Below are positions 5,058 through 43,588 of a stretch of DNA of 64,000 nt, in pieces. Origin of the DNA: a virus (taxonomy: Duplodnaviria; Caudoviricetes). The stretch's first letter is position 1, and each line of letters begins with the position of its first letter. A program made the position numbers and the translations under genes. The DNA is taken from positions 1 through 64,000 of IMG/VR virus record IMGVR_UViG_3300032234_000392; one strand, 5' to 3'. The notes below the pieces were generated by a model, which had not been told where the DNA came from, did not search any database, and saw only the letters and a program-made list of their open reading frames with translations.

Positions 5058-6980
5058 ATGAAAATAAGTCTCGTCCAACCAAATTTTCAACAAGGTCCAA
5101 AAGAATTTAACGCACACTACCTTCCATATAGTGTAGGAGTGTTATGGGCTTATGTTAATCAATTTGAATCGATTAAATCTAATTATCAATTAGAAGATAT
5201 AATCTGGCGACGTGACAATATTGATAAAACTGTAGCCAAACTGTCTAAGTGTGATATAGTCGGCTTTAGCACCTATGTTTGGAACAAGAATTATAACTAT
5301 GCACTAGCACGTAGACTCAAAGAACTTAATCCTAATTGCATTACTATTTTTGGCGGACCAGAGATACCTATTACAAAGAAAGATATCTTTGACAAATTAC
5401 CATTTGCCGATGTAGTAATTAAATCCGAAGGAGAGATTATTCTACGGCAACTATTAGATGCTATTACTGATAATACTCCATGGGAAGATATTCGCGGACT
5501 AGTAATTAATCGCGACGGCCTAGCAGTAGATACCGGAGACGGGGAACGTATCAGCAGTTTAGAAGATATGCCAAGTCCATACCTTACAGGTGTATTTGAT
5601 AAGATAATGGCAGAAACCACAGACGTAGAGTGGAACGCTACAGTTGAAACAAATAGAGGATGTCCGTATGCCTGCACATTCTGCGATTGGGGTAGCCTAA
5701 CCTACAATAAAGTTAAAAAGTTTAACCTAGAAAAAGTGTTTGCTGAACTAGAATGGATCGGTGCTAACGGCTGCGGATTCGTCACCATTACTGATGCTAA
5801 CTTTGGTATGTTTGTCGAGCGTGATAATGCTATTGCTGATAAACTAATTGAAGTACAAGAAAAATATGGTTGTCCTAATAGTTTTAGTATGAGCTGGGCC
5901 AAAGATCAAAAGCCCGAAGTATTTGACATTGTATTCAAACTAATTAAGAATCCTAAATTTAATCAGGGTCTAACTGTTAGTGTACAAAGTATGGACCTAG
6001 ATGTTTTAGAAAACATCAAACGTAGAAATTTAGCACAACATAAAATTGAAAATATTTTTGCACTATGCGATAAAAACAATGTTCCTGTTTATACAGAAAT
6101 TATTCTAGGACTTCCAGGCGAAACAAAAGACACATGGAAGGAAGGATTCTATAAGATATATCGTGCAGGCAATCATACTGGTATTAACATATTACATGCA
6201 CAGCTACTTGAAAACGCTGAAATGAATTTGCTGCAAAAAAAATTGTACGGAATTACCAGTGTACCAGTGTATGATTACATGAGCGGCAGTTACAATTATA
6301 ACGAACTCCAAGAGTGTGTAGAAGTAGTGACCGGAACCAAAGATATGCCAACTGAAGAAATGTTAGACAGTCAGGCATTTAGTTGGTTTATGCAAACATT
6401 TCATATTAACGGACTTACTACATACATCAGCAGATTCTTACACAAAAACGCAGGTATAGATTATTCTGTATTCTATGATAAACTATGGGATTACTTACAA
6501 TCTGATCCTTGGTTTATTAAAGAGCGTGACGAGCTTAGACACTATTATCGTAATTGGATGACAGATGGCAAAATTAATCATCCTAATATATCTAACATTG
6601 AAGTTCACGGGTGGAACATTATACATAGAACTACTTTAAATATGCATTTAGATAGAAAATATAATTATGTATTTGATCTAATAGAGAAGTTTGTGACTAG
6701 CGAGTTTTCTTTAAATGATAATTGTTTAACACAGTTATTACAGTTTCAACGTAATTATGTAATTAACTACGACAACATAGAACAATTTCCGTATGTAATG
6801 AAATTTGATTATGACTTCCTTGGGTACATATTAGACAATGCACCACTAGAAAATACTGTAAAATATAAGTTTGAGTTTCACGAAAGTAAAGATATTAGTT
6901 TAGATAGATTTTTAGAAAACATCTATTTTGGAAGAAAAAGAAACTTTGGCAAAGCTCTAATAACAAAGGAACAAAAATGA
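5058..6980 (+). CDS. Cobalamin (B12)-binding radical SAM enzyme
   Basis: N-terminal B12 domain (IVGFSTYVWN, IFGGPE, EGE); RGCPYACTFCDW CxxxCxxC; DANFG. Confidence 0.9.
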   Translation: MKISLVQPNFQQGPKEFNAHYLPYSVGVLWAYVNQFESIKSNYQLEDIIWRRDNIDKTVAKLSKCDIVGFSTYVWNKNYNYALARRLKELNPNCITIFGGPEIPITKKDIFDKLPFADVVIKSEGEIILRQLLDAITDNTPWEDIRGLVINRDGLAVDTGDGERISSLEDMPSPYLTGVFDKIMAETTDVEWNATVETNRGCPYACTFCDWGSLTYNKVKKFNLEKVFAELEWIGANGCGFVTITDANFGMFVERDNAIADKLIEVQEKYGCPNSFSMSWAKDQKPEVFDIVFKLIKNPKFNQGLTVSVQSMDLDVLENIKRRNLAQHKIENIFALCDKNNVPVYTEIILGLPGETKDTWKEGFYKIYRAGNHTGINILHAQLLENAEMNLLQKKLYGITSVPVYDYMSGSYNYNELQECVEVVTGTKDMPTEEMLDSQAFSWFMQTFHINGLTTYISRFLHKNAGIDYSVFYDKLWDYLQSDPWFIKERDELRHYYRNWMTDGKINHPNISNIEVHGWNIIHRTTLNMHLDRKYNYVFDLIEKFVTSEFSLNDNCLTQLLQFQRNYVINYDNIEQFPYVMKFDYDFLGYILDNAPLENTVKYKFEFHESKDISLDRFLENIYFGRKRNFGKALITKEQK

Positions 6981-8203
6981 ATATAGGATTTATTGGACTT
7001 GGCAAATTAGGACTACCTTGTGCCGAAGCAATAGCAAAGAAAGGACACAGCGTTGCGGGCTATGATGTTCGAACAGTCGATCCAACTATGCTAGTCGACA
7101 TAAAGCCAACTATCAAAGAAGCAGTGCAGAATAGAAACATTGTGTTTATTGCTGTGCCTACTCCGCATGATCCCGCATACGACGGCCAAAAACCTACCGC
7201 TCATTTAGAACCTAAGGATTTTGACTACTCAATAGTTAAACAATGTTTAATAGAAGCAAACAAATACATGACTAAAGATCAACTATTGGTCCTTATATCT
7301 ACAGTATTGCCTGGTACTACTCGAAGAGAGTTCGCTCCATTACTAACCAATACTAGATTTGTATATAATCCGTATCTTATTGCTATGGGAAGTGTTGCAT
7401 GGGATATGGTTAACCCAGAAATGATAATGATAGGTACTGAGAACGGAAGCCTAACGGGCGATGCTAAATTGCTCACAGACTTTTATAAAACAATCATGGA
7501 AAATTCGCCTCGTTATGAAATAGGTACCTGGGACGAGTGTGAATGTATTAAAGTGTTTTATAATACATTCATCAGTGCTAAGATTGGACTTGTTAATATG
7601 ATACAAGACGTAGCGGTCAAACAAGGCAACATTAATGTTGATGTAGTTACCGCAGCACTTGCTAATAGCACTATGCGTATTATGGGTCCGCAATATATGA
7701 AGGCCGGCATGGGGGACGGCGGAGCATGTCATCCGAGAGATAATATTGCTTTGCGATATCTAGCAGAAGAGTTGGATTTAGGCTACGACCTGTTTGATGC
7801 AATAATGACAGCTAGAGAAATACAGGCTAGAAATCTAGCTAAAGAATTAGTCAAGCATGCCAAACAAAATAAGATGAGTATTTTTATTCACGGTAAAGCC
7901 TATAAGCCGGGTGTCGAATACTGTGACGGTAGTTATAGTTTGTTAATCGGTCACTATTGTAAAGAATTAGGATATGAGCCAACTTATATTGACCCGTTGA
8001 CTGGAGATGAAGTTAAAGGTTGTTATGGAGTTGTGCTGTTAGCACACAACAGAAAAGTCACTTACGAGTATCGAGGATTTGAAGAACTACAGAGTTTATA
8101 TTGTACAATAGAAAAAGGGTCAATTGTTGTTGACCCTTGGAGAACATTTAAATCAGACAACCATACAGTAATACATTATGGTAATACTAGAGAATTGATT
8201 TAG
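6977..8203 (+). CDS. UDP-glucose/GDP-mannose dehydrogenase family protein
   Basis: GFIGLGKLG, FIAVPTP, STVLPGT, KVFYNTF, GGACHPRD with catalytic Cys. Confidence 0.85.
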   Translation: MNIGFIGLGKLGLPCAEAIAKKGHSVAGYDVRTVDPTMLVDIKPTIKEAVQNRNIVFIAVPTPHDPAYDGQKPTAHLEPKDFDYSIVKQCLIEANKYMTKDQLLVLISTVLPGTTRREFAPLLTNTRFVYNPYLIAMGSVAWDMVNPEMIMIGTENGSLTGDAKLLTDFYKTIMENSPRYEIGTWDECECIKVFYNTFISAKIGLVNMIQDVAVKQGNINVDVVTAALANSTMRIMGPQYMKAGMGDGGACHPRDNIALRYLAEELDLGYDLFDAIMTAREIQARNLAKELVKHAKQNKMSIFIHGKAYKPGVEYCDGSYSLLIGHYCKELGYEPTYIDPLTGDEVKGCYGVVLLAHNRKVTYEYRGFEELQSLYCTIEKGSIVVDPWRTFKSDNHTVIHYGNTRELI

Positions 8204-12095: not shown

Positions 12096-12535
12096 TGTGA
12101 TTGATTCTTTCTTTTAACTTCATTAATGTCAATAACACCGGTATTAACAGGACCACCGTAATCGCCGTCTACTACAACTCCAGCACATAGTTCACGGAAC
12201 CAACGATCAACAATTTCTTCATCCTTGTCGCCATCAAAACCGTAGCCCTCTTGCTTTAATTTTAACACAAATGGTTCATTCCAGTCAAGTTCAAAAAATC
12301 CGTTTCGAACATTATCTTTATTAACATGTGTGTTCAAAACACCAACCCAGGGTTCTTTCTTACGTGTAGCACGCTCTTTTGGTGTTAGCTTGGCCAACTC
12401 TTCTTGTTCTTGAACAACCTTTAATGCTTGTTCCGCTTCATCTTTTTTAGCAGTAGCTTCTTCTAATAGTTTATTAGCTATTGCAATGTTTGCTTCAATT
12501 TTATCAAAGCCTAGTAATTTTTTAATAAAGTTCAT
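12092..12535 (-). CDS. Hypothetical protein
   Basis: Start MNFIKK overlaps the queE stop. Confidence 0.65.
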   Translation of the reverse strand: MNFIKKLLGFDKIEANIAIANKLLEEATAKKDEAEQALKVVQEQEELAKLTPKERATRKKEPWVGVLNTHVNKDNVRNGFFELDWNEPFVLKLKQEGYGFDGDKDEEIVDRWFRELCAGVVVDGDYGGPVNTGVIDINEVKRKNQSQ

Positions 12536-13389
12536 TAAGTTCCCCACTCATTTTTAAACAACGGCACTTGCAATCTGTCACTGTATCGTAAACCGTTCTT
12601 CATTGCTAGTTCAGCAACACGGCGATTATTTAGTGCGTATACACTTTCGACTCCGCCCACAGGCATTAAGTATACCGGACCTTTAAATCCAGCGGCACGA
12701 TAAATGTCAACTGCTTCTAATGCTTCTTCTGCATCTTCTTCGGATGCAATGACAAATTTTAAATAGGTATAACCTGCTTCTTCGTACTCGCAGACAATCT
12801 CAGGACATATTGCTTCGTCTGGATGTTCGCCGCTGACACTTAGTTTAGCACTAACTGAAAATGTGACTTCTCTAGAAGCAAATGGCGGATTTTGACTCCA
12901 CAGTTGTAAGAATGTTTTAAATTCAGGACTAAGTTTTTGAGTACCGTTAGTTTCAAAAGTAATTTCTTTAAGACCAATCATACTAGGATGACTTAGCAAA
13001 TCTGGATAAGCACGTTGCCATCCTAGTAAAGGTTCGCCGCCTGTAATTACAAGATGCTCGTCCTCCCAACGTTTGAACGGTAATATCTCCATTGTACGTT
13101 CTACAATAGCATCTGTAGTTAATAATGGACTTAAATGTTTGAAGCGAGGATCCCAACTGGCATAGCTATCGCAGCCTGTACTAACCAAAGGCAACTCTTC
13201 ATATTTGGTAAACATATGTGCAACTTGTGCAATTTCATCTACTTCTTTGCTTGATTCGCCTTTAGACATACCAAATCCTGCACATTTAAAATTACAGCCA
13301 AATGTACGTAAGAAAACAGAAGGAACACCCATATAGCGTCCTTCACCTTGTATGCTGTAAAACAGCTCTGCAATTTTTATTTTACTCAT
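12535..13389 (-). CDS. queE: 7-carboxy-7-deazaguanine synthase (radical SAM)
   Basis: ELFYSIQGEG..G.PSVFLRTFGCN, ITGGEP, ETNGT, SVSAKL, RLQV. Confidence 0.9.
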   Translation of the reverse strand: MSKIKIAELFYSIQGEGRYMGVPSVFLRTFGCNFKCAGFGMSKGESSKEVDEIAQVAHMFTKYEELPLVSTGCDSYASWDPRFKHLSPLLTTDAIVERTMEILPFKRWEDEHLVITGGEPLLGWQRAYPDLLSHPSMIGLKEITFETNGTQKLSPEFKTFLQLWSQNPPFASREVTFSVSAKLSVSGEHPDEAICPEIVCEYEEAGYTYLKFVIASEEDAEEALEAVDIYRAAGFKGPVYLMPVGGVESVYALNNRRVAELAMKNGLRYSDRLQVPLFKNEWGT

Positions 13390-13615: not shown

Positions 13616-13800
13616 TCGCTGATTAAAATTCTACACATAAGTGCATCTCGATCATCTTTAAAAAAGAATCGCATGTCGTCTGCAGACACTTCTGTAGTAT
13701 ATTTGCCGCCCGGTAATCCAAAATGTTCTATAATATTGGCACAGGTTTCATTCCACCACGTGTTGCTTTGACTTTCCCACGGTACTCGTATTTCTGTCAT
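13606..13800 (-). CDS. Hypothetical protein
   Basis: 64 aa ORF with ATGA coupling. Confidence 0.6.
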   Translation of the reverse strand: MTEIRVPWESQSNTWWNETCANIIEHFGLPGGKYTTEVSADDMRFFFKDDRDALMCRILISECI

Positions 13801-14174
13801 TTACGATAGTTGCCTTTTTCTGGTATTACATGACGAACTCCCCCTGTAGGATCAGCCATGTCGCCTTTTCTACGAGGTATTAAATGCACATGAGGATATG
13901 GTACAGTTTGTCCTGCAGCTTCGCCCCAATTAAGTCCGATGTTAAAACCATCCCATTCACCTGCTTTAACCTTTTCCTGACCTATTTTAAGAGCATCTGC
14001 AAAACAGTCTTCAATAACACCGTTGGCAGAGTATTTAGGCACAAACAACATGTGCCCATCAGTTACCGGATATTTGTCTTTAAAGATTATCACATGAAAG
14101 TCTTCTCTTACTACATCGTCCCAGGGTGCTTGACCTGCTTCGCGAGCATCGTCCAACGAATAATGTAAATTCAT
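13797..14174 (-). CDS. HIT family nucleotide hydrolase
   Basis: DKYPVTDGH.L, GFNIG.N.GEAAGQTV..PHVHLIPR; start reassigned to MNLHY. Confidence 0.85.
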   Translation of the reverse strand: MNLHYSLDDAREAGQAPWDDVVREDFHVIIFKDKYPVTDGHMLFVPKYSANGVIEDCFADALKIGQEKVKAGEWDGFNIGLNWGEAAGQTVPYPHVHLIPRRKGDMADPTGGVRHVIPEKGNYRK

Positions 14175-14175
14175 A

Positions 14176-14415
14176 CTAACCTCTTGTTCCCGTTTGTGTT
14201 CTTGTAATACTAGGACCATCACTTTCAAAGTCCATGCCAGCCGAACGACCTTCATATTTCTGGCCATTCCACTTCATTGAAATTTTAATGGCTTTATTAA
14301 TAATAATATTGAGCTTGACATGCTCTTCAAAACTTTCTACAACAGCTTCGGTGTTCTTAGAACTCTTAGCCATTTTTACCATACAAGTTTCGCTGTGTCT
14401 AGATATTGTACCCAT
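14176..14415 (-). CDS. Hypothetical protein
   Basis: Start reassigned to MGTISRH. Confidence 0.6.
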   Translation of the reverse strand: MGTISRHSETCMVKMAKSSKNTEAVVESFEEHVKLNIIINKAIKISMKWNGQKYEGRSAGMDFESDGPSITRTQTGTRG

Positions 14416-14416
14416 A

Positions 14417-14557
14417 TTATTTTTTCTTTTGATGTTTTGCCATTGCGTCGGCACTACGCTGTTGAAAATCTACCATACTATGATATCCCATTTGATAACA
14501 AGGACAATGGTTGCCTAAAATCCAACGAGCTAATTTAATTCGTATTTTTTTAATCAT
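14417..14557 (-). CDS. Small hypothetical protein (46 aa, MIKKIRIKLARWILGNHCPCY...), not in the ORF track
   Basis: ATGA overlap with the PRTase stop; fills the gap exactly. Confidence 0.55.
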   Translation of the reverse strand: MIKKIRIKLARWILGNHCPCYQMGYHSMVDFQQRSADAMAKHQKKK

Positions 14558-15120
14558 TTAGTCCACCAATCTTCCCAAGGGAAATCTACCCAAACATCGT
14601 TTTCAGCTTTGTTAACTTCCATACCAACGTAATCCATGTTTGCTGTACATTGGCTGGCAAGATTATCCACTAGCACTGCAAATTTAACATTTTGATTCCA
14701 TACATCGTTTTCCCATGTCGGGTCGCCCGGAAAACAACCGCTAGCCCAATCTTTCATAATCCAATTAAAGGTAGCTCCTGTATCGTTGATGTCGTCAACA
14801 ATAAGAATGTCCTTGGCACGTCCTTCCTGTAGTAAAGACATCGGATCGTCTAACATAGGATCAATAGTTTTATCAGTATGTCCTAGTGCATCCTGTGCCA
14901 TCCACAGATTACTTTCAGGTCCAGTTTCACTGTCACGTAGGCTAACACTCAATGAATACATTGGTACATTAAGATAATGACTAATCATAACTGCAGGAAT
15001 CAACCCGCCGCGGGTTAATCCTACAATATAATCTGGATGCCATCCGCTTAGGATAATATCTCGACACAGTTTAGCAACTAATCCGTTGAGCTGCTGATTA
15101 TTAATAATTAATTTATTCAT
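14554..15120 (-). CDS. Purine phosphoribosyltransferase (XGPRT/HGPRT-like)
   Basis: IVGLTRGGLIPA, PRPP-binding ILIVDDINDTGAT, C-terminal WVDFPWE. Confidence 0.85.
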   Translation of the reverse strand: MNKLIINNQQLNGLVAKLCRDIILSGWHPDYIVGLTRGGLIPAVMISHYLNVPMYSLSVSLRDSETGPESNLWMAQDALGHTDKTIDPMLDDPMSLLQEGRAKDILIVDDINDTGATFNWIMKDWASGCFPGDPTWENDVWNQNVKFAVLVDNLASQCTANMDYVGMEVNKAENDVWVDFPWEDWWTK

Positions 15121-15546: not shown

Positions 15547-16317
15547 TTATCTAGGAGCAAAGTCCTGTTGTAGTTTAATGTTATCAAAAAATTCTTTCTT
15601 GGTACTTTGATCTTCTTTGAAAGCACCTTTAAGCACTGTAGTCTGTGTTAAAGAACTATGTGCCATAATACCACGATTCTCACAACAACCGTGTACCGCT
15701 TGAATATAAACACCTACATCCTTAGCACCTGTTGCCTTCATAATTTCACGTGCTATATCATTGGCTAATTCTTCTTGAAGTGTACCACGGCGAGCGCACC
15801 ACTGAGCAATACGAGTATACTTACTAAGACCGATAAGTTTGTTAGCAGCAATAATGCCAATGTAAGCGACACCACTAACAGGCTGGTGATGATGACTACA
15901 CAGACTGCGTAGTTCACTACGGACGACCAACATACCTTCATATCTATCCTCACTGTCATTAGGGAAAGCAGTGGCATCTGGGTTAGGATCATAACGACCG
16001 CTCATAATTTCGTTAAAATACATTTTAGCTAGTCGTCGTGCAGTACCGTGACTGTTAGGATCGTTTTCCCGATCGATCAGCAAACGATCAAGAACTAATT
16101 CAAAAGCTTCTGTAGCTTCATCGATTAGTTTATGTTTCATTTCTTCAGTGACATATTCTGAAATATTGTCACCTGCCCAGAACCGTTTTTGATCACGTTT
16201 CATTTTAAAACGAATAGCATCAGCTAGATACGTTTCTTTATAGTCCTTGTTAGTGTCATCCTGCTGTTCTGCTCCGGCAAGAACATTTTTTAAATCTTCT
16301 GATGTAAATGTTGTCAA
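15547..16317 (-). CDS. folE: GTP cyclohydrolase I
   Basis: SLCSHHHQP, IGLSKYTR, LQEEL, HGCCENRG. Confidence 0.95.
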   Translation of the reverse strand: MTTFTSEDLKNVLAGAEQQDDTNKDYKETYLADAIRFKMKRDQKRFWAGDNISEYVTEEMKHKLIDEATEAFELVLDRLLIDRENDPNSHGTARRLAKMYFNEIMSGRYDPNPDATAFPNDSEDRYEGMLVVRSELRSLCSHHHQPVSGVAYIGIIAANKLIGLSKYTRIAQWCARRGTLQEELANDIAREIMKATGAKDVGVYIQAVHGCCENRGIMAHSSLTQTTVLKGAFKEDQSTKKEFFDNIKLQQDFAPR

Positions 16318-19513: not shown

Positions 19514-21052
19514 TTAAGCAGCTACGATCTCTTCTTCTAAAGCACGTAGTTCGTCGTCGTCTGGATTACTAAAGTCAATTTCATCTTGACGAATTTCTTC
19601 TACTTCAAACAAACTACCAAATGTATTTTGTGCAGGACCACCTTGTAAGCGTGAGCCTTCCAAACTCTTTAAGAATCCAGCAGCATCAGAAATTAATTGG
19701 AATGCTTCTGCTTTAGTTTTAGTATTGAATAGTTCTTCAACAAAGGTAGCAAAGTAAAGAATTCTATTAGGAACCCAGTCGCTGTATTCAATCTCTTTCT
19801 TGCCTTCAACACCTTTCATGCGCCAATCAGGTTTATGTTTAGCAGTTTCAATGTCCATGAGTTGTTGAGCACGTTGTACCGCAACAATATGACATTCAAC
19901 ATTATGACCCATCATTAGTGCATAGGCAAAACTATCCCAACTAGTTTTTCCTTCTTTGTTGATTTTATTCAACATACCCGGAGCATACCAACAGATATCG
20001 CCCATAGTTAATCGACTAGCGGTTTCGCTAGCAAACGGGAATGGAATATCACTCTTAGCCAATGCTTTATTATCAGGAGCCTTGTCCATGATAACTGACC
20101 AACGCTTGTTAGTATGAACAGCATTGGTATAAACAAGTCCGTGGGCAGTAGCAATAAAAGGACTTGCACAGTCAAAGCTAATTGTAATCTCTGGATTGAT
20201 ATGTTTACGGATCTGACGTTGTATCAAAGTCAAGTAGCAAGACCAGTCTAACTGTGCAGTACCTAAGAAGTGCATCCAGTTCTTGCCAGTAAGCATTCCT
20301 TCGTCACGCATGGTCATTAAACGTTTAAGTGTAATGTCCATCTTGCACATATTAGCGCCGCCCATAGCCCAACCTTCGGCCTCACGTCCTGCATATTTGC
20401 CTTTGGAGTCTGAAAACTCTTTGACACCTTCGTACCATTTCTCAGCAGTATCCCAGTCTGAACCTTGTAGAACATTTAACCACTTAGTTTGACCTAAACG
20501 ATTCATTAAGAAATAATCATTGTTATAGCGAGTCTTTTCTAAACAATCTTCAAACGTCTTTAATCCGGTCTTTGGACTGTGAATGTGATCGCAGGCCCAT
20601 GTAGGAACGTCCAACATCATGGACCAATCAGCAGTAAGTTCTAACCATTCAAGAATCTTTTGACGAGTCTTAGTAGCTTCTGCTCCTTCGAAGTTTAACC
20701 AGTCAAACTTTAGTACACCTTTACCAATCTGATAACCACCGGAGTCACCCAAGATCATAGTCTTTGAACGATCACGATCTTGAATCATTGACTCTTGTGT
20801 TAGACTTTTTTGTAGATCTAATTGCGCATGACCTGCTGAATACAAACCGTACTTGTAATAAAAGTAGCCTTGTTCTGGATTTAGAAAGTTCATACCTTCA
20901 ATTCCACGATCGAATCCTGCAGGAATACGATCGTCGGGAATAAATTTTTCTAAACGCTGTTTAGCAATATATGTGCTATAGAAACTACTAATTGCAGGCA
21001 AATAGACTGCGTAGTCTTTCTGTAGTGGTGTTAGATCAACTGGTTGTTTCAT
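19514..21052 (-). CDS. dpdA: TGT-fold DNA 7-deazaguanine transglycosylase (DpdA-like)
   Basis: ILGDSGGYQ, MMLDVP, NVLQG, GWAMGG, MHFLG, SFDCASP match TGT catalytic motifs; clusters with folE and queE. Confidence 0.8.
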   Translation of the reverse strand: MKQPVDLTPLQKDYAVYLPAISSFYSTYIAKQRLEKFIPDDRIPAGFDRGIEGMNFLNPEQGYFYYKYGLYSAGHAQLDLQKSLTQESMIQDRDRSKTMILGDSGGYQIGKGVLKFDWLNFEGAEATKTRQKILEWLELTADWSMMLDVPTWACDHIHSPKTGLKTFEDCLEKTRYNNDYFLMNRLGQTKWLNVLQGSDWDTAEKWYEGVKEFSDSKGKYAGREAEGWAMGGANMCKMDITLKRLMTMRDEGMLTGKNWMHFLGTAQLDWSCYLTLIQRQIRKHINPEITISFDCASPFIATAHGLVYTNAVHTNKRWSVIMDKAPDNKALAKSDIPFPFASETASRLTMGDICWYAPGMLNKINKEGKTSWDSFAYALMMGHNVECHIVAVQRAQQLMDIETAKHKPDWRMKGVEGKKEIEYSDWVPNRILYFATFVEELFNTKTKAEAFQLISDAAGFLKSLEGSRLQGGPAQNTFGSLFEVEEIRQDEIDFSNPDDDELRALEEEIVAA

Positions 21053-21054
21053 AT

Positions 21055-21792
21055 TTAGGCTGCCTGAGCTGGAATAATGTATTTGTAAGTAGCAAGTCCG
21101 CTGTCTAAAGTAATTTGAATAGCACCTTCATTACTTAATGACATTTTTGTATTGTTTACATCTGCAATCTTAAGAATACTCAAGATTGGCAGCACTGGCC
21201 AAGTCCAGCCTCGATCAAGTTTACCTGCAACATTCTGTGCAAAAATAAACTCACCACCGTGTGTACTAGCATCACCGAAGATAAACTTCAAGTTGCCACC
21301 ATCTGTCTTTGCTAAGAATGTTGGATGTTCATTGTTAGCACCAGCTTGAAAGTTAAAACGTTGAACAGCACTAACGCTAGGCTCAATCTCTACATCCCAC
21401 TTAACACCACGAAACTTAACAGTCTTCATCTTTTCGTTGATAATTTCTGTATTCATAAAACGATAGTCGTTTTTAAAGTCGCCGTCTTTGTTTTCAAAAT
21501 GTAGACCTACTGGCAAAGTTTCACCATTGCGTTCTGCAGTAGTAATAGTAATTTTTGCATCGTCTTTGTATTCAGAACCATCCAACAAATATTTCAACTT
21601 GTTTAACTGCGGCATACCAAACACACCGATCATATCTGCATAAGGAGCAGCAGTTTCTGCCTCCATAATAACTGAACGATCGTCAGCCATAGAGTTGATG
21701 GTTGTGCCTTTGTCTGTGCCAGTAACTTTAACTGTGGTTAAGAAACCAAGGTTTTGTGTATGGCTTACAATGTCTTGTAGAATATCTTTCAT
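21055..21792 (-). CDS. DNA polymerase sliding clamp (gp45/PCNA-like)
   Basis: 245 aa beta-rich protein next to the polymerase; PCNA-like N-terminus and YKYIIPA end; clamp loader also in the window. Confidence 0.7.
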   Translation of the reverse strand: MKDILQDIVSHTQNLGFLTTVKVTGTDKGTTINSMADDRSVIMEAETAAPYADMIGVFGMPQLNKLKYLLDGSEYKDDAKITITTAERNGETLPVGLHFENKDGDFKNDYRFMNTEIINEKMKTVKFRGVKWDVEIEPSVSAVQRFNFQAGANNEHPTFLAKTDGGNLKFIFGDASTHGGEFIFAQNVAGKLDRGWTWPVLPILSILKIADVNNTKMSLSNEGAIQITLDSGLATYKYIIPAQAA

Positions 21793-21815
21793 GTTAATTT
21801 CCTTTGTATAATAAG

Positions 21816-21844
21816 ATTATATTTAGATCGTGAGCGAAAAGCAA
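21816..21844 (-). promoter_or_regulatory. Promoter for the clamp-dpdA transcription unit
   Basis: TTGCTT-17 nt-TATAAT with an overlapping TAAATA. Confidence 0.6.
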
Positions 21845-21851
21845 ATATATT

Positions 21852-24518
21852 TTACTCAAAATCAAACAGCTTGCTGAATGTATTGTCCGACCTTGTTGAA
21901 CTGATGTCCCATTCCAAAACACCAATTAAGTTTTCTAGCTTTTCATCAATAACGGTATTTTCCATTTCGCTATCGTTAAAAGGTAAGTCTTTAAACCATT
22001 GCGGTAAACGCAATTCGTCTACAGGATATGCCACAGACGTATAGCCCATTGGGTTATCTTTGACCTTGCAAACAATAACCTTGGCACCGTCTGTGACTGC
22101 CATCGAGTATTTGTCATCCATCATCCGTTTGAGCGTATTCCAATTAAGACTTGCTCTAACATGACCAGGCATATTAGTCTTGCCAGCTTTCTTCTCTTTT
22201 GCGGCGTATTCTGTAATGTTGTTTGCACGTTTAGGTGATCCTTTCTCCCAACCTGGGCGAGTTTTAAATTCAGTACGGAAGTTGGTAATATATTCTAGTA
22301 CTTGTTCTTTCTCAGCACCGTTTAGTACCTGTGTTAGTACTTCACTTAAGAAGTCTTGGATAACAACCGGGGTATCTGAACGCTTGAGGTCGAGCCCCAT
22401 GGCCTTGATCTTGCCGCCCTTTCCGTCTGTGTCTGCTCGTTTTCCTTCTTTGTCGTAGTAGAGAACGGCATATCTTTTCTTAGTAATAAACAGACCTTTT
22501 GATGCGACGATCTCTCTTCCTGCTTTGATAACATCTCCCCTTGTTTTAGGGCAGTGGAAGCTGTCTTGCATGAATTTGACGAATGTGTCATTTACAGTTT
22601 CTCCTATGGTATCGTAAAGTTCAACTACAGATTCTCTAGTCCACGGTAATGCACCAGAGTCAATATCTTTTTTAAGTGTTTTATAAGCTGAAAAATAACA
22701 ACTGTCTGTATCGCCATATATAATAGCTTTACCTATGTGATCATACTCGCCAGTGACAATTTCATTTACCTTAGCAGCCATGTGCTTGGCAATTTGACGG
22801 CCAGTGAGTGTAGTGGACTGACCAATACGATTGTCAAAGAACCTACAACCAGGATTAAGAATAGCGCCATAGAGACTGTTGAGGTTAATCTTTTTAACCA
22901 GTTGACGTTTATCCCAATATTCTTCTTCAATTTTATTTCCTGCCTTTATACATTCTTTAAGTTTGGCCTGCATCTCTTTGCGTTCAGCATACCAACGTTT
23001 TAACAGTCCGGGAATAATACCTTCTTTTTCATAGGTAAAGATAGTACCATTAGCTGAAATCATCCAAGGTTGATTGCTTTCAAATATTAAATCATATATC
23101 TGTGCAGCACTTAGAGTATCTTCACCGCCGTCTTCCCAGTCAATAGTAATCTCACGACCAACTTCTTTGTTCATCACAGCAGTGTATTCTAAACTACCAA
23201 ACACACCTTCCCATGCACCTGCAAATGATCTACCTTTGGCAATTTCAGCAGCAATGAAGTCTTTGGTGCCGTCTTGGCGCAACTGCCCAACAATAGTTTC
23301 AGGCCCCATGTTTAGTGCTCTAATTGCACTAGGATATAGTGAGTTAATATCTAGAGAACCAATCCATTCGTGAATGCCTTTTTTAGGAAATGCAACATAT
23401 GCACCAGCAGCTTGTGTGTCAAGCCCTTCTCGATTAACACGATTAGGAACAATCATGCCACGCTTGTGAGCTTCGTTAATAATAGCTTGTTCAGTCACAG
23501 CCACGGCACCCATAGTAGTCTGTAGCAGTACAGTACATTCATGTGCCAGTGTATTGGCAAGATCCATAAACTTTAGTTTTTTGTCAAGGTCGTCAAGCAG
23601 TTGACAGTCGTTGATGTTGTACTGAACAAACGTTTTAAAATCGTTGTTATATAATTGATCCAGTGTACCTTCATACTGTGTTTTTCTTTGACCTAATTCA
23701 TATTCGGCAATAGCATCTAATCGATATGTATGACGTTCTTCATATGTATACTTACGATAAAGTTCAAGACTGTCTAGATGAACACGTCCAATGAAGTCAT
23801 AGGTAATTGCAGTCTTGCCGTATTTTTCGTATTCACGCTTTTTAGGAAATTGATTCCACAAACAAAATCGTCTAGTATCCTCTTTGCTTAATACCTTGGT
23901 CACACGATTAACTGTGTAAGGTATATCAAAGCCTTCTGAGTTCCAACCGCTTAGTACATCGGCTTCTTGTATTAGATCGAGAAACGTATCTAACATGTCT
24001 GCTTCGTTGTCAAACAGCATGACATTTTTAAAGTCTGACACTTGTCGTTGAGCTTCTTCCATGTTAATTGTTTTAGGAGGAATCGCTAAACATACCATAG
24101 TGTCTAACCATTGTAGGTGAACAGCAATCGCAGTGATCGGCATGAACGCATCTTCTGGAGATGCATAGCCACGTTCTGGATCAAAGTCCACCTCAATGTC
24201 GAAGAACGCTACATTTAGTTTTGGAGCATCTTGATTTAGATAGTGATCTTCAAGGCAGCGATAAATTGGGTTAATATCGCTTTCGTATAATTTTTTGTTT
24301 GAATGAATGGCAAGTTCTTTGCGATGTTCTTTGACATTCTTACTAGAAACTCTGCTTAACGGTTCGCCTTTAATTGAAAGGAACTTGCCTTTAGGATCAT
24401 TGTAATAAAAAATATGCCGTGCTGGATATTCTTTATAATGCCTTTGGCCTTTGTCGTCTCGTTCGACGACATTGATAATATCTTGCTCTCTATCATAGAA
24501 AGCGTCTACATAACTCAA
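21852..24518 (-). CDS. Family B DNA polymerase (T4 gp43-like)
   Basis: Exo motifs FDIEV and GWNSEGFDIPY; pol motifs DINSLYPS, KINLNSLYG, YGDTDS, KKRY; TTG start with AGGAG SD. Confidence 0.97.
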   Translation of the reverse strand: MSYVDAFYDREQDIINVVERDDKGQRHYKEYPARHIFYYNDPKGKFLSIKGEPLSRVSSKNVKEHRKELAIHSNKKLYESDINPIYRCLEDHYLNQDAPKLNVAFFDIEVDFDPERGYASPEDAFMPITAIAVHLQWLDTMVCLAIPPKTINMEEAQRQVSDFKNVMLFDNEADMLDTFLDLIQEADVLSGWNSEGFDIPYTVNRVTKVLSKEDTRRFCLWNQFPKKREYEKYGKTAITYDFIGRVHLDSLELYRKYTYEERHTYRLDAIAEYELGQRKTQYEGTLDQLYNNDFKTFVQYNINDCQLLDDLDKKLKFMDLANTLAHECTVLLQTTMGAVAVTEQAIINEAHKRGMIVPNRVNREGLDTQAAGAYVAFPKKGIHEWIGSLDINSLYPSAIRALNMGPETIVGQLRQDGTKDFIAAEIAKGRSFAGAWEGVFGSLEYTAVMNKEVGREITIDWEDGGEDTLSAAQIYDLIFESNQPWMISANGTIFTYEKEGIIPGLLKRWYAERKEMQAKLKECIKAGNKIEEEYWDKRQLVKKINLNSLYGAILNPGCRFFDNRIGQSTTLTGRQIAKHMAAKVNEIVTGEYDHIGKAIIYGDTDSCYFSAYKTLKKDIDSGALPWTRESVVELYDTIGETVNDTFVKFMQDSFHCPKTRGDVIKAGREIVASKGLFITKKRYAVLYYDKEGKRADTDGKGGKIKAMGLDLKRSDTPVVIQDFLSEVLTQVLNGAEKEQVLEYITNFRTEFKTRPGWEKGSPKRANNITEYAAKEKKAGKTNMPGHVRASLNWNTLKRMMDDKYSMAVTDGAKVIVCKVKDNPMGYTSVAYPVDELRLPQWFKDLPFNDSEMENTVIDEKLENLIGVLEWDISSTRSDNTFSKLFDFE

Positions 24519-26622: not shown

Positions 26623-26871
26623 TTATCTTTTAATTGCGTTGCCTTCACCGAATAAGCTAGTCTTCATATCTAGTGCATTATCAGTGGGTTTGACTTTTTT
26701 AGGCTTAGGTTGCGGAGGAGCTTTTGTGCCTCCTGGGCCACCTGGTTTGCCCAAATAGCTGGTTTTACCGCGAGCTTTTCCTGGGCTAAGATGTGGATTA
26801 ACTACAGTGCCTATATTACCTGCTGAAGTAGCACCTGCTGTAGCCGATTCTAAAATTTCTTTAATTTTCAT
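26623..26871 (-). CDS. Putative head internal protein
   Basis: N-terminus MKIKEILE; TAAATA 7 nt upstream. Confidence 0.6.
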   Translation of the reverse strand: MKIKEILESATAGATSAGNIGTVVNPHLSPGKARGKTSYLGKPGGPGGTKAPPQPKPKKVKPTDNALDMKTSLFGEGNAIKR

Positions 26872-30752: not shown

Positions 30753-31433
30753 TTATTTATCGCTTAATACATAATTGTAAATTCGGCCTACTACTTCAGA
30801 ATTACGCAATTTAAGCATCAATAGCATTGATTCGTTTTCTACTAGGATATATCTACGATCCCAATTCCAGTCAGTTCGAATAAACCAATTTTCTACAGCA
30901 GGAGTACAAGTAACTTGTTTGCCTTGATTTTTTAACCAATCGACATATCGTTGTTTGCCCTCTCGATCACCTGCCATTTTATGGGGTAATAGATAGACTT
31001 TGTATTGATATCTGTTGTGCGGCAGTTTTTTAACAGCCACAGAAGATGCAGAACTGGTCAGTAAATCAACAGTAGCAGGATCCGGTTCAAATTGATGAAC
31101 TACAATGTCTTGGAATTCTTGAGATAAATCTTGATAAAACGTAGGATCGTTAGTATATAAATCTAGATTACTGTTTTCAATACGTTTAGTCCAGATTTTG
31201 CTATCATATTTTTCTAACACTTCACAAAGTCTAAGAATATTTTCTCGATTATTATAGGCTCGTTGATGTGTAGAGTATGGTCGTACTGTTGAAGCATCGC
31301 TTTGACACAACTCTTTAATATAGTCAAAATTATAATTTCGAAAGATCACACAGCCTGCTTGTCGCAGACTGATCTTATACAACCATTTGCCGTAGAACTT
31401 TCTACTGGTTAGTTTGATTTTCTGTGATGTCAT
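30753..31433 (-). CDS. Hypothetical protein
   Basis: 226 aa ORF. Confidence 0.65.
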   Translation of the reverse strand: MTSQKIKLTSRKFYGKWLYKISLRQAGCVIFRNYNFDYIKELCQSDASTVRPYSTHQRAYNNRENILRLCEVLEKYDSKIWTKRIENSNLDLYTNDPTFYQDLSQEFQDIVVHQFEPDPATVDLLTSSASSVAVKKLPHNRYQYKVYLLPHKMAGDREGKQRYVDWLKNQGKQVTCTPAVENWFIRTDWNWDRRYILVENESMLLMLKLRNSEVVGRIYNYVLSDK

Positions 31434-33750
31434 CTGTTTTTTCTGCAGCTCGCTGAGCTCGTAATACTTTTTTTTCTTCTTTAGTCAAAGGTTTAGGAAT
31501 TTCAGTGACTGTAAATGTTAAATCATTATCTGCAATATCTATATTAACACGACCACCGTCGACTAAATCACCAAATAGTACTCTGCGACTCAGCGGGCTT
31601 TTAATCTTATTATCGATTAATCGTGCTAACGGTCTTGCGCCCATCTTACGATCGTAGCCTTTATCAGCTAACCATTTGGCTGCTGCATTGTTTAATACTA
31701 TTTCAATGCCTTTGTCTTTAAGCTGTGTGTTTAGTTCTCCTACAAATTTCTTAACAATTTGTATAACAGTGTTTTGATCAAGACTTGAAAACTTAATAAC
31801 AGCATCTAAACGATTTCGAAATTCCGGAGCAAAAAACTTTTTAACTGCTTTGTCATCTTCTCCATCTTTGGCTAAATCTCCAAATCCAATCGTGTTGTTT
31901 TCGTTATCACGAGCACCTAGGTTCGAAGTCATTAACAAAATAGTATTGCGACCGTCAGCCTGTTTGCCATTAGATCCAGTGATAAATCCGTTGTCCATGA
32001 ATGCCAATAAGATATTCATAACATCGGGATGTGCTTTTTCAACTTCGTCTAACAACAAGATAGCATTTGGATGTTCTTGTAGTTTAGTAATTAATTGACC
32101 TGCATTATCTTCATAGCCCACATATCCCGGAGGAGCACCAATTAATCGAGCAACACTATGTTTCTCTTGATATTCGCCCATATCAAAACGTATCAACTCC
32201 ATGCTCATTCTGTCAGCTAATGCCCGAGCGGTTTCTGTTTTGCCTGTACCGGTTGGTCCTAGGAACAAGAAGCTACCAATAGGTTTATTAGGATGTTTCA
32301 TTCCAGCCTGTGCCACAAAGATTTTATCAAGTAGAGTCTCAACAGCTTTATCTTGTCCGTATACTGCAGATTTCATTCCACCTTCGAGATCAGCTAAGTT
32401 TTTACTTTCTTTCTGAGCTACAGTTTCTAAAGGCATGTTAATCATCTTAGACAGTTCATAGGTGACTTGTTCAATGTCTACAATCTGTTCAACGCCCTCC
32501 ATACCTTCGTCGTCTTTTAACTTATAACGAGCGGCAGCACAATCTAAAATATCAATAGCTTTATCCGGCAGTTTTTTATCCGCCATATACTTAACACTTA
32601 GTTTAACTGCTTGATCAATAGCTGCATCTGAAATTTTAACATTATGATGTTTTTCATAATACTTTTTAATACCCTTGAGAATCTTAACACTCATTTCAGC
32701 ACTAGGTTCATCGATAGTCACACGTTGGAATCGACGCATTAAAGCACGATCGCTTTCAAAGTGTTTGCGATATTCTTCCCAGGTAGTTGACGCCATTAGT
32801 TTAATAATACCCTTGGTAAGAATAGGCTTAAGCATATTGCTCATATCGTTTGAGCTTTGACTTGAAGCACCTGCACCCTGCATCATATGAGCTTCGTCAA
32901 TGAAAAGAATAATCTTGCCTTTCTTTTCTAATGCAGTCAACACAGCCTTAAGACGTTCTTCAAAGTCACCTCGATATTTACTACCGGCAAGCAAAGCACT
33001 GATGTCTAAGGTGTAGACCTGGTGATCTTGAATAAACTTAGGAACTTTCTTTTCAAAAATCTTTCGAGCAAGCCCTTCTGCAATAGCTGTCTTACCAACA
33101 CCAGGATCACCAACCATAAGCACGTTGCACTTGTTGCGACGAGCAAGTACCAGTTGAATTTTTTCGATCTCGTCGTCACGTCCGATAACAGGATCTATAG
33201 TTCTTTGTTTTGCTTTTAATGATAAATTAGTACAGAATTGATTCAAAATACGATCCGTTTGGCCAGAGTTAACAACACGATGCTCTTCAGCATCCTCAAC
33301 TTCTTCAGTTACAACATGTTCTTGAAAATACTTGACAAATTTTTCTTTGGTCACTCCGCCCTTTTGCAAAAAGTAAAATCCAAAGCTGTTCTTTTCTGAC
33401 AGTACACTAATAACAACATCAGCAACTTCCATGCGCTGACGACCACTAAACAGCACTTGTGTAAAGCACCGATTAAGCACACGTTCAACTGAATTGGTTT
33501 TTTTAGGTTTAAATCCTGCTGCAGGTTTTTCAATCTTAATATCGTTGAGATTGTTTTTTAGATAATGTTCTAGATTGGCTTTGATAAATTTAGCATCCGC
33601 CCCAAAACTTTCTAGTAGAGTGTACGAATCAGTGTCACAGAGAATACCATAGACAATATGTTCTATAGTAATATACTCATGATGAAGTTCTTTGGCAGTG
33701 TTTACAGAACTTTCAAAAATGTCCTGTAGGCTTTGGCTTGGTTCAATCAT
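31402..33750 (-). CDS. clpA: ATP-dependent Clp protease ATPase subunit ClpA
   Basis: Clp N-domain; Walker A GDPGVGKT and GPTGTGKT; KYRGDFEER; GAPPGYVGY; IGF loop; no ClpB middle domain. Confidence 0.92.
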   Translation of the reverse strand: MIEPSQSLQDIFESSVNTAKELHHEYITIEHIVYGILCDTDSYTLLESFGADAKFIKANLEHYLKNNLNDIKIEKPAAGFKPKKTNSVERVLNRCFTQVLFSGRQRMEVADVVISVLSEKNSFGFYFLQKGGVTKEKFVKYFQEHVVTEEVEDAEEHRVVNSGQTDRILNQFCTNLSLKAKQRTIDPVIGRDDEIEKIQLVLARRNKCNVLMVGDPGVGKTAIAEGLARKIFEKKVPKFIQDHQVYTLDISALLAGSKYRGDFEERLKAVLTALEKKGKIILFIDEAHMMQGAGASSQSSNDMSNMLKPILTKGIIKLMASTTWEEYRKHFESDRALMRRFQRVTIDEPSAEMSVKILKGIKKYYEKHHNVKISDAAIDQAVKLSVKYMADKKLPDKAIDILDCAAARYKLKDDEGMEGVEQIVDIEQVTYELSKMINMPLETVAQKESKNLADLEGGMKSAVYGQDKAVETLLDKIFVAQAGMKHPNKPIGSFLFLGPTGTGKTETARALADRMSMELIRFDMGEYQEKHSVARLIGAPPGYVGYEDNAGQLITKLQEHPNAILLLDEVEKAHPDVMNILLAFMDNGFITGSNGKQADGRNTILLMTSNLGARDNENNTIGFGDLAKDGEDDKAVKKFFAPEFRNRLDAVIKFSSLDQNTVIQIVKKFVGELNTQLKDKGIEIVLNNAAAKWLADKGYDRKMGARPLARLIDNKIKSPLSRRVLFGDLVDGGRVNIDIADNDLTFTVTEIPKPLTKEEKKVLRAQRAAEKTDDITENQTNQ

Positions 33751-40279: not shown

Positions 40280-40745
40280 CTATTTCCATCCAAGTGTGAT
40301 CGCCCATGTATTTTACCTGAGCTTGATACTCGTAATCTTCGGGAGCAGAGCTAGACCAATCGTTTGGGCCATTTTGTGTTAACAACGTATGCTGTTTTCG
40401 TTGATCCCAAACCAACCAATACACATTTCCCATCACTGGTTGAAACTGATATACCGCAGCATGAACAGCATCTGTGATTTCTAATCTACGTTTAATAGCC
40501 TGTGCTTGTTTTTCCAACACACTAACTAGTTCTACAATACGATCGTATTCTTGCTGGGCATACATCCTAGCATGATTAATCATCAAATCTTTTTGTTTGG
40601 TTACAGGAACTAGATCAAATTTAACTCCGCCCGCTTCTGTAGGATACTCTGATACATTTCTATTAAAGAATGGTATTAGAGTTCCGTCTATATCAGCATC
40701 AAAACTTTTTCTACCTTTAGCTAAGTTAGATTTTTTATCAGCCAT
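40263..40745 (-). CDS. Hypothetical protein (DUF2452-like)
   Basis: Coiled coil followed by FQPVMG.VY.L...W. Confidence 0.55.
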   Translation of the reverse strand: MADKKSNLAKGRKSFDADIDGTLIPFFNRNVSEYPTEAGGVKFDLVPVTKQKDLMINHARMYAQQEYDRIVELVSVLEKQAQAIKRRLEITDAVHAAVYQFQPVMGNVYWLVWDQRKQHTLLTQNGPNDWSSSAPEDYEYQAQVKYMGDHTWMEIDESKT

Positions 40746-41658
40746 TTAATCTAGATAATCTTACCAGTGTAGCTGAAAGATTAATTTCTGGGTCAGAAAT
40801 TAACGTATGATCTACTAATCCTTGTTTAACAATCATGATAGCCTTGTACTGATTTTCATCGTTGCCAAAAATATCTAAATTATCATAGAGCCACCGATAG
40901 ACATCTTCCATTTCTTCTGCACGTAGTTTACCGCATAACATCTTGCGAGCTTCTGTAATCTTGCCTGCTTTAAATAGCTCTACCATATCAAACTTCCAGT
41001 CAGCGGAACCTGCGTCTCCTTGATTAGGAGAAACTAACCGACCATCTTGAGCATTTTGCTGAAGCATCTGAAGACATTTACGAAGATCAGGATAGGTCAC
41101 TTTAACATAAAGATCTAAAGTGTCAAGATCAAACTCGATATTTTCTTCAACTAAAATTGTTGCAGCTCTAGCGGTAAATTCTGTTTGATCTGTTTTTTCT
41201 ACATGGAATCCCTGACAGCGACTGTGTATTGCTGGAATAATCTTATTAGGGTAGTTACAGGTTAAAATAAATCTACTAGTTGCATGATACTCTTCCATAA
41301 CACCACGCAAGGCTGCTTGAGCATTAGGAGATAAAAAATCAGCCTCGTCAAGTAGTACAACTTTAAATGGACCAAACGGAATCATCTGCACAAAGTTAGT
41401 AATTGGAATACGAACTTCATCTACACCGTTATTACGACTACCGTTTAACTCTAATACATCATAGTCCTCAATACCTATTTCATTAATAAGAATTTTAGCC
41501 AATGTTGTTTTACCAATACCAGCACTACCACTCAAGAGCAGATGAGGAATACTTTTATCTTTAACCCATGTTTCAACTTGTTTGCGTTGATGTGCATCTC
41601 TAAATACATAGCCGTCTATGCTTTTAGGACGATATTTTTCTACCCATAGTTCTTTCAT
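40738..41658 (-). CDS. Clamp loader AAA+ subunit (gp44/RFC small subunit-like)
   Basis: LWVEKYRP, GSAGIGKTT, LDEAD, SRC. Confidence 0.92.
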   Translation of the reverse strand: MKELWVEKYRPKSIDGYVFRDAHQRKQVETWVKDKSIPHLLLSGSAGIGKTTLAKILINEIGIEDYDVLELNGSRNNGVDEVRIPITNFVQMIPFGPFKVVLLDEADFLSPNAQAALRGVMEEYHATSRFILTCNYPNKIIPAIHSRCQGFHVEKTDQTEFTARAATILVEENIEFDLDTLDLYVKVTYPDLRKCLQMLQQNAQDGRLVSPNQGDAGSADWKFDMVELFKAGKITEARKMLCGKLRAEEMEDVYRWLYDNLDIFGNDENQYKAIMIVKQGLVDHTLISDPEINLSATLVRLSRLNG

Positions 41659-42888: not shown

Positions 42889-43119
42889 TTATTTCTTATT
42901 GCCACGAGACGACACTTCTTCACGAAGTGCATTTGGATTTTGAGCATAATAGTCTTGTAAAACTTGTTCTCTGGTACGAACAATTTTACCGCCCGGTCCT
43001 AGTTCATCTCCTCGAGCATTAACTCGTACATTTCCTACTGCTGGTGTTTTTTCATTACGTAGAGATAATTTCTCCATGTCAATTTCTTTACCTCTTACGC
43101 TAGTGTAAACTCTACCCAT
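42889..43119 (-). CDS. Hypothetical protein
   Basis: 76 aa ORF with AGGAG SD. Confidence 0.65.
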   Translation of the reverse strand: MGRVYTSVRGKEIDMEKLSLRNEKTPAVGNVRVNARGDELGPGGKIVRTREQVLQDYYAQNPNALREEVSSRGNKK

Positions 43120-43588
43120 GTTGTTCTCCTTTGAAGAATTCTTCTATTGGTATATTGTATTTAACGCTGTCTATCTTATGGACCCCAATAAGATGAAGCA
43201 CATAACTTGCTACCGAACTGCCTCGTCCTACACCCCAAACTACGTTATTTTCTCTAAGAGTATCAACAACATATTTCATAACATGTAGTAGATCATACAT
43301 ACCGTTTTTAATAAACAGCTCTAATTCTTGATCTACACGTTGAGTTTGTTCTGTAGTTGTGCATTGAGCATATAAAAATTCTACTAAATTAGGGCAGTAT
43401 TCATTAGGTATAAACCAATGCTTAGAGTTTATTTCTGTTGGAGGGGTTGGGTAGTTTAGTCTTTCACTGTCTATGCGATCTAGATATTTGCTTAAATCGT
43501 CTGAAGTTAGGCAGTGATTCAGTATTTCTGGACCATGCCTTAAAACACCTTGTACTAGTTCTTCAGTAGTGTTAGTTTCAGTCCACAT
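43112..43588 (-). CDS. Stand-alone fragment of DNA polymerase III alpha (DnaE) palm region
   Basis: RVDQEL...WGVGRGSSVASYVLHLIGVHKIDS..Y.I..EEF. Confidence 0.7.
   Translation of the reverse strand: MWTETNTTEELVQGVLRHGPEILNHCLTSDDLSKYLDRIDSERLNYPTPPTEINSKHWFIPNEYCPNLVEFLYAQCTTTEQTQRVDQELELFIKNGMYDLLHVMKYVVDTLRENNVVWGVGRGSSVASYVLHLIGVHKIDSVKYNIPIEEFFKGEQHG

Follow-up and report, generated by a model that had tools for sequence, protein, structure and literature searches.

Why would a predicted base-exchange enzyme of a phage carry in its tail the same short peptide that ends the phage's DNA polymerase? The question is raised by a 64,000-nucleotide stretch of viral DNA (hereafter the window), positions 1 to 64,000 of IMG/VR virus record IMGVR_UViG_3300032234_000392, a 163-kb record that is ~46% complete by CheckV. 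Three minus-strand open reading frames (ORFs) of the window encode proteins of 888 aa (21852-24518), 245 aa (21055-21792) and 512 aa (19514-21052). They stand in the order polymerase, sliding clamp, tRNA-guanine transglycosylase (TGT)-like enzyme, with 2 nt (21053-21054) between the clamp stop and the start of the TGT-like gene. A first reading of the letters (hereafter the sequence-only reading) had named the three polymerase, clamp and dpdA. Its gene order and 2-nt gap are exact by ORF coordinates, and translation returns both peptides where it had placed them, NTFSKLFDFE at the polymerase end (21855-21884, minus strand) and NTFGSLFEVE in the tail of the TGT-like enzyme (19598-19627, minus strand).

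Because the tail of the enzyme carries the same short peptide as the end of the polymerase, the enzyme most probably attaches to the sliding clamp that the phage itself encodes. We propose, with a probability of roughly 0.7, that through an epitope in the style of T4 gp43, gp33 and gp55 a DNA 7-deazaguanine transglycosylase is brought to phage DNA on which the clamp is loaded. A fuller proposal, whose odds we put a little above even, is that this hypermodification enzyme is a bona fide clamp client, that clamp loading directs the exchange of guanine for 7-deazaguanine and makes it processive, and that the motif evolves in step with the polymerase epitope across a large, mostly uncultured group of jumbo phages. 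The features that carry the argument are the following:

21852..24518, minus strand: family B DNA polymerase of RB69/T4 gp43 type, 888 aa, TTG start (Pfam DNA_pol_B and exo1; phrog_262, 3e-200)
21855..21884, minus strand: polymerase C-terminal peptide NTFSKLFDFE, presumed clamp-binding epitope (from translation; the stop codon follows directly)
21055..21792, minus strand: sliding clamp of PCNA/gp45 fold, 245 aa (AlphaFold model and fold comparison)
19514..21052, minus strand: divergent TGT-fold enzyme, a DpdA-like putative DNA 7-deazaguanine transglycosylase, 512 aa (AlphaFold, fold matches, hhalign)
20729..20746, minus strand: DSGGYQ catalytic motif, D103-Q108 (aligns to E. coli Tgt TDSGGFQ)
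20171..20173, minus strand: D294, equivalent of the TGT nucleophile Asp (invariant in alignment A1; SFDCASP aligns to Tgt MFDCVMP)
19598..19627, minus strand: tail peptide NTFGSLFEVE, residues 476-485, proposed clamp-docking motif (from translation)
19517..19597, minus strand: distal, acidic part of the tail, residues 486-512, which holds another conserved element (F494, L502, L505 and E506)

Polymerase, clamp and a divergent transglycosylase

The locus as a whole has no megablast match among phage records, and its proteins differ in how readily they are recognised. The closest solved relatives of the polymerase are RB69 and T4 gp43 (E 1.5e-63), and a terminus of the class ...F..LF[DST]F[ED]* is common to the related loci with a complete polymerase. 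The last 80 residues match no PDB chain, so the comparison with the T4 terminus rests on the T4 record itself, which reads ...SLDFLFG*. In T4 and RB69, the polymerase terminus inserts into a hydrophobic pocket of the trimeric gp45 clamp. The gp43 C-terminus is the gp45-binding epitope and is interchangeable with the copies in the late-transcription factors gp33 and gp55, each of which sits on a variable, unstructured linker (PMC2988020), in agreement with the premise of the sequence-only reading that T4-type gp43 binds gp45 by its extreme C-terminal peptide. By analogy, either peptide of the window would bind the clamp of this phage. In PA5oct (L001:1605-6831) a 'Hef-like homing endonuclease' ORF divides the polymerase gene into two parts, and a similar interruption occurs in L089, L021 and L034.

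Sequence searches with the clamp were uninformative (no Pfam match, phrog_12062 'unknown', BLAST against gp45 E 7), and its identity comes from structure. An AlphaFold model built with 24 homologues from related contigs (predicted local distance difference test, pLDDT, 91.5) shows a two-domain sliding-clamp protomer. Foldseek matches it to PCNAs (probability 1.0, TM 0.60-0.71), and VIA-align gives Z 17.5 to PCNA and Z 16.7 to T4 gp45 (6drt; root-mean-square deviation, rmsd, 3.2 A over 211 residues). All 38 of the 38 full-length structural matches (Z >= 10.8) are clamps or clamp-like processivity factors. The names first given to polymerase and clamp thus hold, the one by sequence and the other by fold. 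A loader gene lies further along the window:

40738..41658, minus strand: clamp-loader large subunit, gp44-like (phrog_168 'clamp loader of DNA polymerase', 2.6e-77)

The phage encodes a gp44-like loader and therefore runs its own clamp system.

The 512-aa protein is recognised only by fold comparison and hhalign. It has no match in Pfam (even at E <= 10), PHROGs, NCBIfam, PADLOC or PDB sequences (phmmer and profile), and PF01702 matches nothing anywhere in the 163-kb genome. The AlphaFold model (pLDDT 92.6) finds as its top structural matches tRNA-guanine and archaeosine transglycosylases exclusively (Z 17.4-18.6 over ~305 residues, rmsd ~4.5 A; Foldseek probability 1.0). In hhalign against E. 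coli Tgt (probability 86%, E 5e-6), the segments DSGGYQ (D103), MLDVP (D148), LQG, GWAMGG, HFLG and SFDCASP (D294) pair with the catalytic and substrate-binding motifs of TGT, and Q196-G197 and G231-G232 align as well. Across 64 diverse homologues (alignment A1), D103, S104, G106 and D294 are invariant and D148 and Q108 nearly so; D294 presumably corresponds to the nucleophile Asp, D264 in E. coli and D280 in Z. mobilis. The Zn-binding CxCxxC...H subdomain was not found: the protein (P0001) contains no CxCxxC, and none of the A1 columns that are invariant or nearly so is a Cys.

By its modelled fold and intact catalytic residues (D103, D148, Q196, D294), the protein is a member of the TGT superfamily. 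The earlier name of DpdA-like transglycosylase therefore stands as to TGT fold and catalytic residues, but not as to membership, at the sequence level, in a named DpdA subfamily. The family is large, with 896 clusters at 50% identity; its isolate members, in PA5oct and relatives, Sinorhizobium phage Phosso and Vibrio phage 2.275.O, are all annotated 'hypothetical'.

More distant TGT-domain proteins occur in Vibrio phage GR11A (L108:3629-5218) and Pseudomonas phage Voja-6 (L109:3872-5242), the former matching profile A1 with probability 97.8%. Both keep a CNC-x-VC cluster, and CNCAVC of GR11A aligns to a Cys-free part of the window family. After the catalytic domain they read ...STKTLFSKAEEE... 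and ...KTSSLFGAVPE..., followed by a long lysine-rich tail. These stretches may represent an analogous docking peptide in another subfamily.

The tail peptide and the polymerase terminus

The motif of the TGT-like enzyme lies in what appears to be a flexible tail. Residues 469-484, which hold the motif, are the sole long low-confidence segment of the AlphaFold model (pLDDT <50), and 27 mostly acidic residues (486-512) follow the motif. Within these lies a second conserved element, F-x7-L-x2-L-E, which overlaps a predicted terminal helix (500-511, pLDDT ~80). The tail had been described as acidic and probably disordered; the acidity and the low confidence at 469-484 bear this out, but the last ~12 residues are predicted to be helical. 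The second element is shared by the window clade, by PA5oct and by several relatives at 40-50%; proteins that stop at the LF motif or shortly beyond it lack the element.

The LF core is kept in surroundings that vary. L481 is conserved in 15/18 and F482 in 17/18 representatives (36-52% identity), while the linker around them is variable in length and sequence. The sequence-only reading would have been undercut by loss of the motif in DpdA orthologues; the motif is conserved. Among 109 full-length family tails, 49 contain [LM]F, compared with 17.8 +/- 3.5 in composition-preserving shuffles (maximum 30, n=1000), and in 29 it falls among the final eight. The motif is terminal or 1-3 residues from the end in the P0135 clade, L084, Vibrio 2.275.O and the Phosso-like phages. 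Four divergent family members (P0131, P0138, P0139, P0141) carry two LF-type motifs, the first behind the catalytic domain and the second at the very C-terminus, as expected if a trimeric clamp had a bivalent or multivalent client. The diversity of alignment A1 was too great to scan it for patterns. FVEELF was considered as a tail motif in three loci and rejected: it belongs to the core domain, and the tails of those loci are degenerate.

Among the sampled loci, the LF tail accompanies phages with this polymerase-clamp pair. In the family tree, one clade consists of representatives that stop where the catalytic domain does. One such tail-less protein, P0209 (L110:10001-11407), is encoded on a bacterial contig of 731 kb, where two integrase genes share its stretch and no replisome genes are nearby. 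Single-protein scans with P0186 and P0194 returned no viral loci. P0209 is divergently paired with a 527-aa protein (L110:8339-9922, minus strand) that has no Pfam or PADLOC match; the pair recurs on contig L111 and may serve DNA modification or defence, as a module of the cell or of a mobile island.

Likeness to the polymerase end stands out within the genome itself. We made a position-specific scoring matrix (PSSM) solely out of the polymerase C-termini found in related loci and ran it against all six-frame ORFs of 60 aa or more in the 163-kb genome. Scores were 21.6 for the polymerase, 12.2 for the TGT peptide as the best non-self hit, and 8.8 for the next hit. The pattern F..LF within 45 residues of an ORF end occurs in four ORFs of the genome, two of which are the polymerase and TGT genes. 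The DNA stretches coding for the two motifs are identical at 20/30 bases and use different synonymous codons at F, L and E. Because the codons differ at synonymous sites, recent gene conversion, which we considered as a source of the likeness, is rejected.

Two other proteins drew attention during the search for motif carriers. A PhoH-like protein with EFLGLFNDF was set aside as a further clamp client, its peptide being part of a family of folded domains. About 2 kb upstream of the polymerase, a basic ORF of 82 aa rich in Gly and Pro (26623-26871, minus strand) ends ...NALDMKTSLFGEGNAIKR, and more than 20 related loci conserve its element NALDxxxS[LI]FG[EG]G. This ORF could encode another small protein with an LF motif; its sole PHROG match is weak and to an unknown family.

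We then compared the two termini across lineages, recovering both from 80 loci and, in addition, from genomes whose two genes are far from each other. The contigs of P0155, P0179, P0185 and P0201 are too short for full polymerase context, and L084 still gave a polymerase terminus. In the lines below an asterisk marks the protein end.

Window clade: polymerase NTFxKLFDFE*; TGT NTFGSLFEVE...
P0135 clade: polymerase TTFNDLFDF*; TGT NNLFDF[SDE]*
Contig L084: polymerase STFFEF*; TGT LSLFEF*
Vibrio 2.275.O: polymerase NNTDLFDW*; TGT NNNDLFGW*
PA5oct: polymerase HFDSLFGW*; TGT SFNSLFDVD...
L081-L083: polymerase NKLFEF* or NKLFELT*; TGT SSLFE(GG)*
Phosso-like 435-470-kb phages: polymerase TTFNDLF[ST]F*; TGT NNGLFDF*, NNGLFA* or EGLF*

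In the Phosso-like phages the clamp gene directly follows the polymerase and the TGT gene lies elsewhere in the genome, and the likeness is still present. An exact permutation over eight lineage representatives, repeated for three choices of representatives, found that 8, 217 and 67 of 40320 permutations reach the observed identity (p 2e-4 to 5e-3). The motif tracks the polymerase terminus across lineages, with a signal that is real but modest at single positions, which answers the co-variation check proposed with the sequence-only reading in its favour.

Clamp docking, the DNA substrate and rival explanations

How might such a peptide act? In the mechanism we propose, NTFGSLFEVE on its flexible linker would mimic the polymerase terminus NTFSKLFDFE, and the tail would dock in one of the three pockets of the phage's PCNA-like clamp, the product of the gene 2 nt upstream. 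In this way the enzyme would be enriched on phage DNA that carries a loaded clamp and is hence replicating. The docked enzyme could scan along the DNA and swap guanine for a 7-deazaguanine supplied by the neighbouring FolE/QueE-type genes, coupling modification to replication, and polymerase and enzyme could share one ring. The sequence-only reading had placed the enzyme directly behind the fork, and its site of action may indeed be there; alternatively, it could work just as well with clamps that stay behind on finished lagging-strand DNA, or with whatever clamp is loaded.

The supply genes lie downstream of the TGT-like gene, within 8 kb of it:

15547..16317, minus strand: GTP cyclohydrolase I (FolE), first step of 7-deazaguanine synthesis (PF01227, 1.6e-39)
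12535..13389, minus strand: radical-SAM enzyme, QueE-like by position and family (PF04055, 8.9e-7)

The syntenic PA5oct gene of the QueE-like ORF is annotated 7-carboxy-7-deazaguanine synthase. Similar genes surround the homologues of the TGT-like enzyme elsewhere: QueE is near that of PA5oct; QueF-like, QueC-like and FolE genes are near that of Vibrio 2.275.O; and FolE adjoins P0175. PA5oct DNA resists restriction enzymes with G-containing sites, in a preprint that names no transglycosylase (PMC12191111), and a comparative paper mentions a 'deazaguanine synthesis/incorporation system' in PA5oct, a term search of it giving no passage with a clamp link (PMC7824862). Because of its TGT fold and residues, its Que-gene neighbours and the resistance of PA5oct DNA at G sites, 'DpdA-like' is a fair functional label for the 512-aa protein. 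By this context DNA would be the substrate, and the inserted base would be a 7-deazaguanine.

The deazaguanine cluster of the window also contains a phosphoribosyltransferase (14554-15120, minus strand) and a HIT-family protein (13797-14267, minus strand). A phosphoribosyltransferase recurs elsewhere (L086:2846-3301; L125:22014-22442), after FolE beside the TGT homologue P0175 and in the 2'-deoxy-7-deazaguanine (dDG) phage phi19:2, and some steps of the pathway could accordingly take place on nucleotides.

Several observations weigh against the proposal that the tail docks on the clamp and brings the enzyme to DNA. The clamp-peptide complex is drawn from sequence and analogy, and the case for a DNA substrate comes entirely from context. 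T4-type epitopes are terminal, whereas the window motif is internal, 27 residues from the end. In a few close relatives the motif is degenerate (NILTFED, KLMIVED, QHFYEE), so a strict LF is dispensable. Single-position co-variation is modest, and the permutation result varies somewhat with the representative chosen. The PSSM scan and client search turned up no other convincing motif carrier in the 46%-complete genome. Peptides of LF type are similar, too, to QL[SD]LF, the motif that binds the bacterial beta clamp, so sequence alone does not fix the partner. Finally, the PA5oct clamp homologue EST35_0314 (L001:6912-7658; hidden Markov model E 7.6e-88) is annotated as a virion 'structural protein, ESI-MS/MS' (electrospray-ionisation tandem mass spectrometry). 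Its detection there could reflect a clamp carried in or on particles, or replisome proteins in the preparation.

The most serious rival, which we nevertheless regard as unlikely, accepts that the peptide is shared and gives it another partner: host DnaN, a gp32-type single-stranded DNA-binding protein, the helicase or primase, or a replication-factory scaffold would recruit both proteins together. Many tails do read xLSLF, xLDLF, DPDLFG or NNGLF, like the beta-clamp consensus; in the Phosso-like phages the neighbours of the TGT gene are primase and DnaB-type helicase genes, not the clamp gene; and the window tail holds a second acidic element besides the LF motif. The polymerase, however, is gp43-like, and in its family this terminus is the clamp epitope. 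The phage also encodes its own clamp and loader, and clamp and TGT genes adjoin in the window clade and lie close together in PA5oct, Vibrio 2.275.O, L084, L086 and the P0135 clade. We consider it improbable that the tail regulates and does not tether, whether by vying with the polymerase for clamp pockets and so timing or throttling replication, or by folding back onto the enzyme as an autoinhibitor released at the replisome. Competition for the pockets is physically plausible because the motif is of the same class as the polymerase terminus, and the pLDDT of ~80 in the terminal helix hints at an intramolecular contact. A trimeric clamp, however, offers three pockets, so that co-occupancy ('toolbelt') is the usual outcome (PMC2988020), and the tails of many lineages end at or 1-3 residues after the LF core, without a distal helix.

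More improbable again is an enzyme that modifies tRNA, for which the peptide likeness would be irrelevant to DNA modification. Its nearest solved folds are all tRNA enzymes and no DpdA-specific model matches it, yet in many lineages the gene belongs to the replication module, the DNA of PA5oct behaves as if its G were modified (PMC12191111), the canonical Zn subdomain, which contacts tRNA in TGT, is not conserved, and a clamp-type motif would make no sense on a tRNA enzyme. Very little probability attaches to a chance likeness of two low-complexity tails. Short hydrophobic-acidic peptides are common and just 10 residues are compared, but the genome rank in the PSSM scan, the enrichment over shuffled tails, conservation within a variable linker and the tracking across lineages all speak against chance.

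Elsewhere in the window, the plus strand encodes a radical-SAM enzyme of 640 aa that binds B12 and, after it, a protein of the UDP-glucose/GDP-mannose dehydrogenase family (5058-8203), and a ClpB-like double-AAA+ chaperone of 782 aa lies at 31402-33750 (minus strand). A 158-aa protein (43112-43588, minus strand) matches phrog_11127 and phrog_405 ('DNA polymerase') and is probably one piece of a split, minimal Pol III alpha-like protein. Such a protein is known from group 2.2 jumbo phages (PMC7824862), and Phosso has a similar 191-aa 'DnaE-like' fragment annotated near its TGT gene.

Known clamp clients and known DpdA enzymes

What we propose resembles most closely the gp45 clients of T4 and RB69 (gp43, gp55, gp33 and ligase), among which one hydrophobic-acidic peptide recurs on the polymerase and on non-polymerase proteins with flexible linkers. 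Those phages have a trimeric PCNA-like clamp with its own loader; here a two-domain PCNA/gp45-fold protomer is accompanied by a gp44-like loader. The complex of T4 gp45 with the ligase peptide has been solved (6drt). The present case differs in that the client is a DNA base-exchange enzyme, the motif is internal and the clamp has no detectable sequence similarity to gp45.

With the DpdA enzymes of phages and bacteria (bDpdA, DpdA1-4; PMC6884629, PMC10516641), the window enzyme shares the core of the TGT superfamily and neighbours of FolE/QueD/QueE type. DpdA is proposed to replace G after replication, in phages whose DNA resists restriction at G sites (PMC6884629, PMC10516641). Unlike these, the window enzyme lacks a PF01702 or PADLOC match and a conserved CxCxxC, and it has ~100 extra C-terminal residues with a clamp-type motif. 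Because the candidate DpdA3 of Cellulophaga phage phi19:2 (picked by cluster position; 259 aa) has no such tail, the tether would not be a general DpdA property. That candidate aligns weakly with the window family (probability 74%), and profile A1 had no match in the DpdA3 phage Campylobacter phage CP220. The direct comparison for subfamily placement covered DpdA3, with this weak profile match as its outcome.

Tethering of a DNA-acting enzyme to a clamp has precedents outside phages. DNMT1, UNG2 and archaeal UDG are recruited to new DNA through PCNA-interacting-protein (PIP) boxes in disordered regions. The concept is the same, whereas the motif (Qxx[LIVM]xx[FY][FY]), the chemistry (methylation or excision) and the domain of life differ. 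The bacterial beta-clamp motif QL[SD]LF, often C-terminal, occurs in polymerases I-V, MutS/L and Hda, and MuC of phage Mu has a beta-clamp-binding motif (PMC12867686). Several tails of the window family read LSLF or LDLF, but the leading Q is usually absent and the neighbouring clamp is of PCNA/gp45 type, not DnaN. Full-text searches on DpdA or deazaguanine and clamps gave no account of a clamp-tethered DNA transglycosylase, and a term search of the DpdA subfamily paper gave no clamp link (PMC10516641). Against the literature searched, what would be new is the combination of a clamp-binding peptide with DpdA-type base exchange, each known separately.

How some phages reach very high replacement, or how DpdA finds phage and not host DNA, is described as unexplained in that paper (PMC10516641). 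Coupling to the replisome, if true, would explain both the completeness of modification and the targeting of self over non-self. The family is abundant in metagenomes, and because it is large, abundant and unannotated in isolates such as PA5oct, it likely supplies the missing transglycosylase of modified-G jumbo phages. A base-exchange enzyme would then join the clients of the clamp 'toolbelt' as a phage counterpart of DNMT1-PCNA, and the same motif-swap logic could direct other enzymes to replicating phage DNA.

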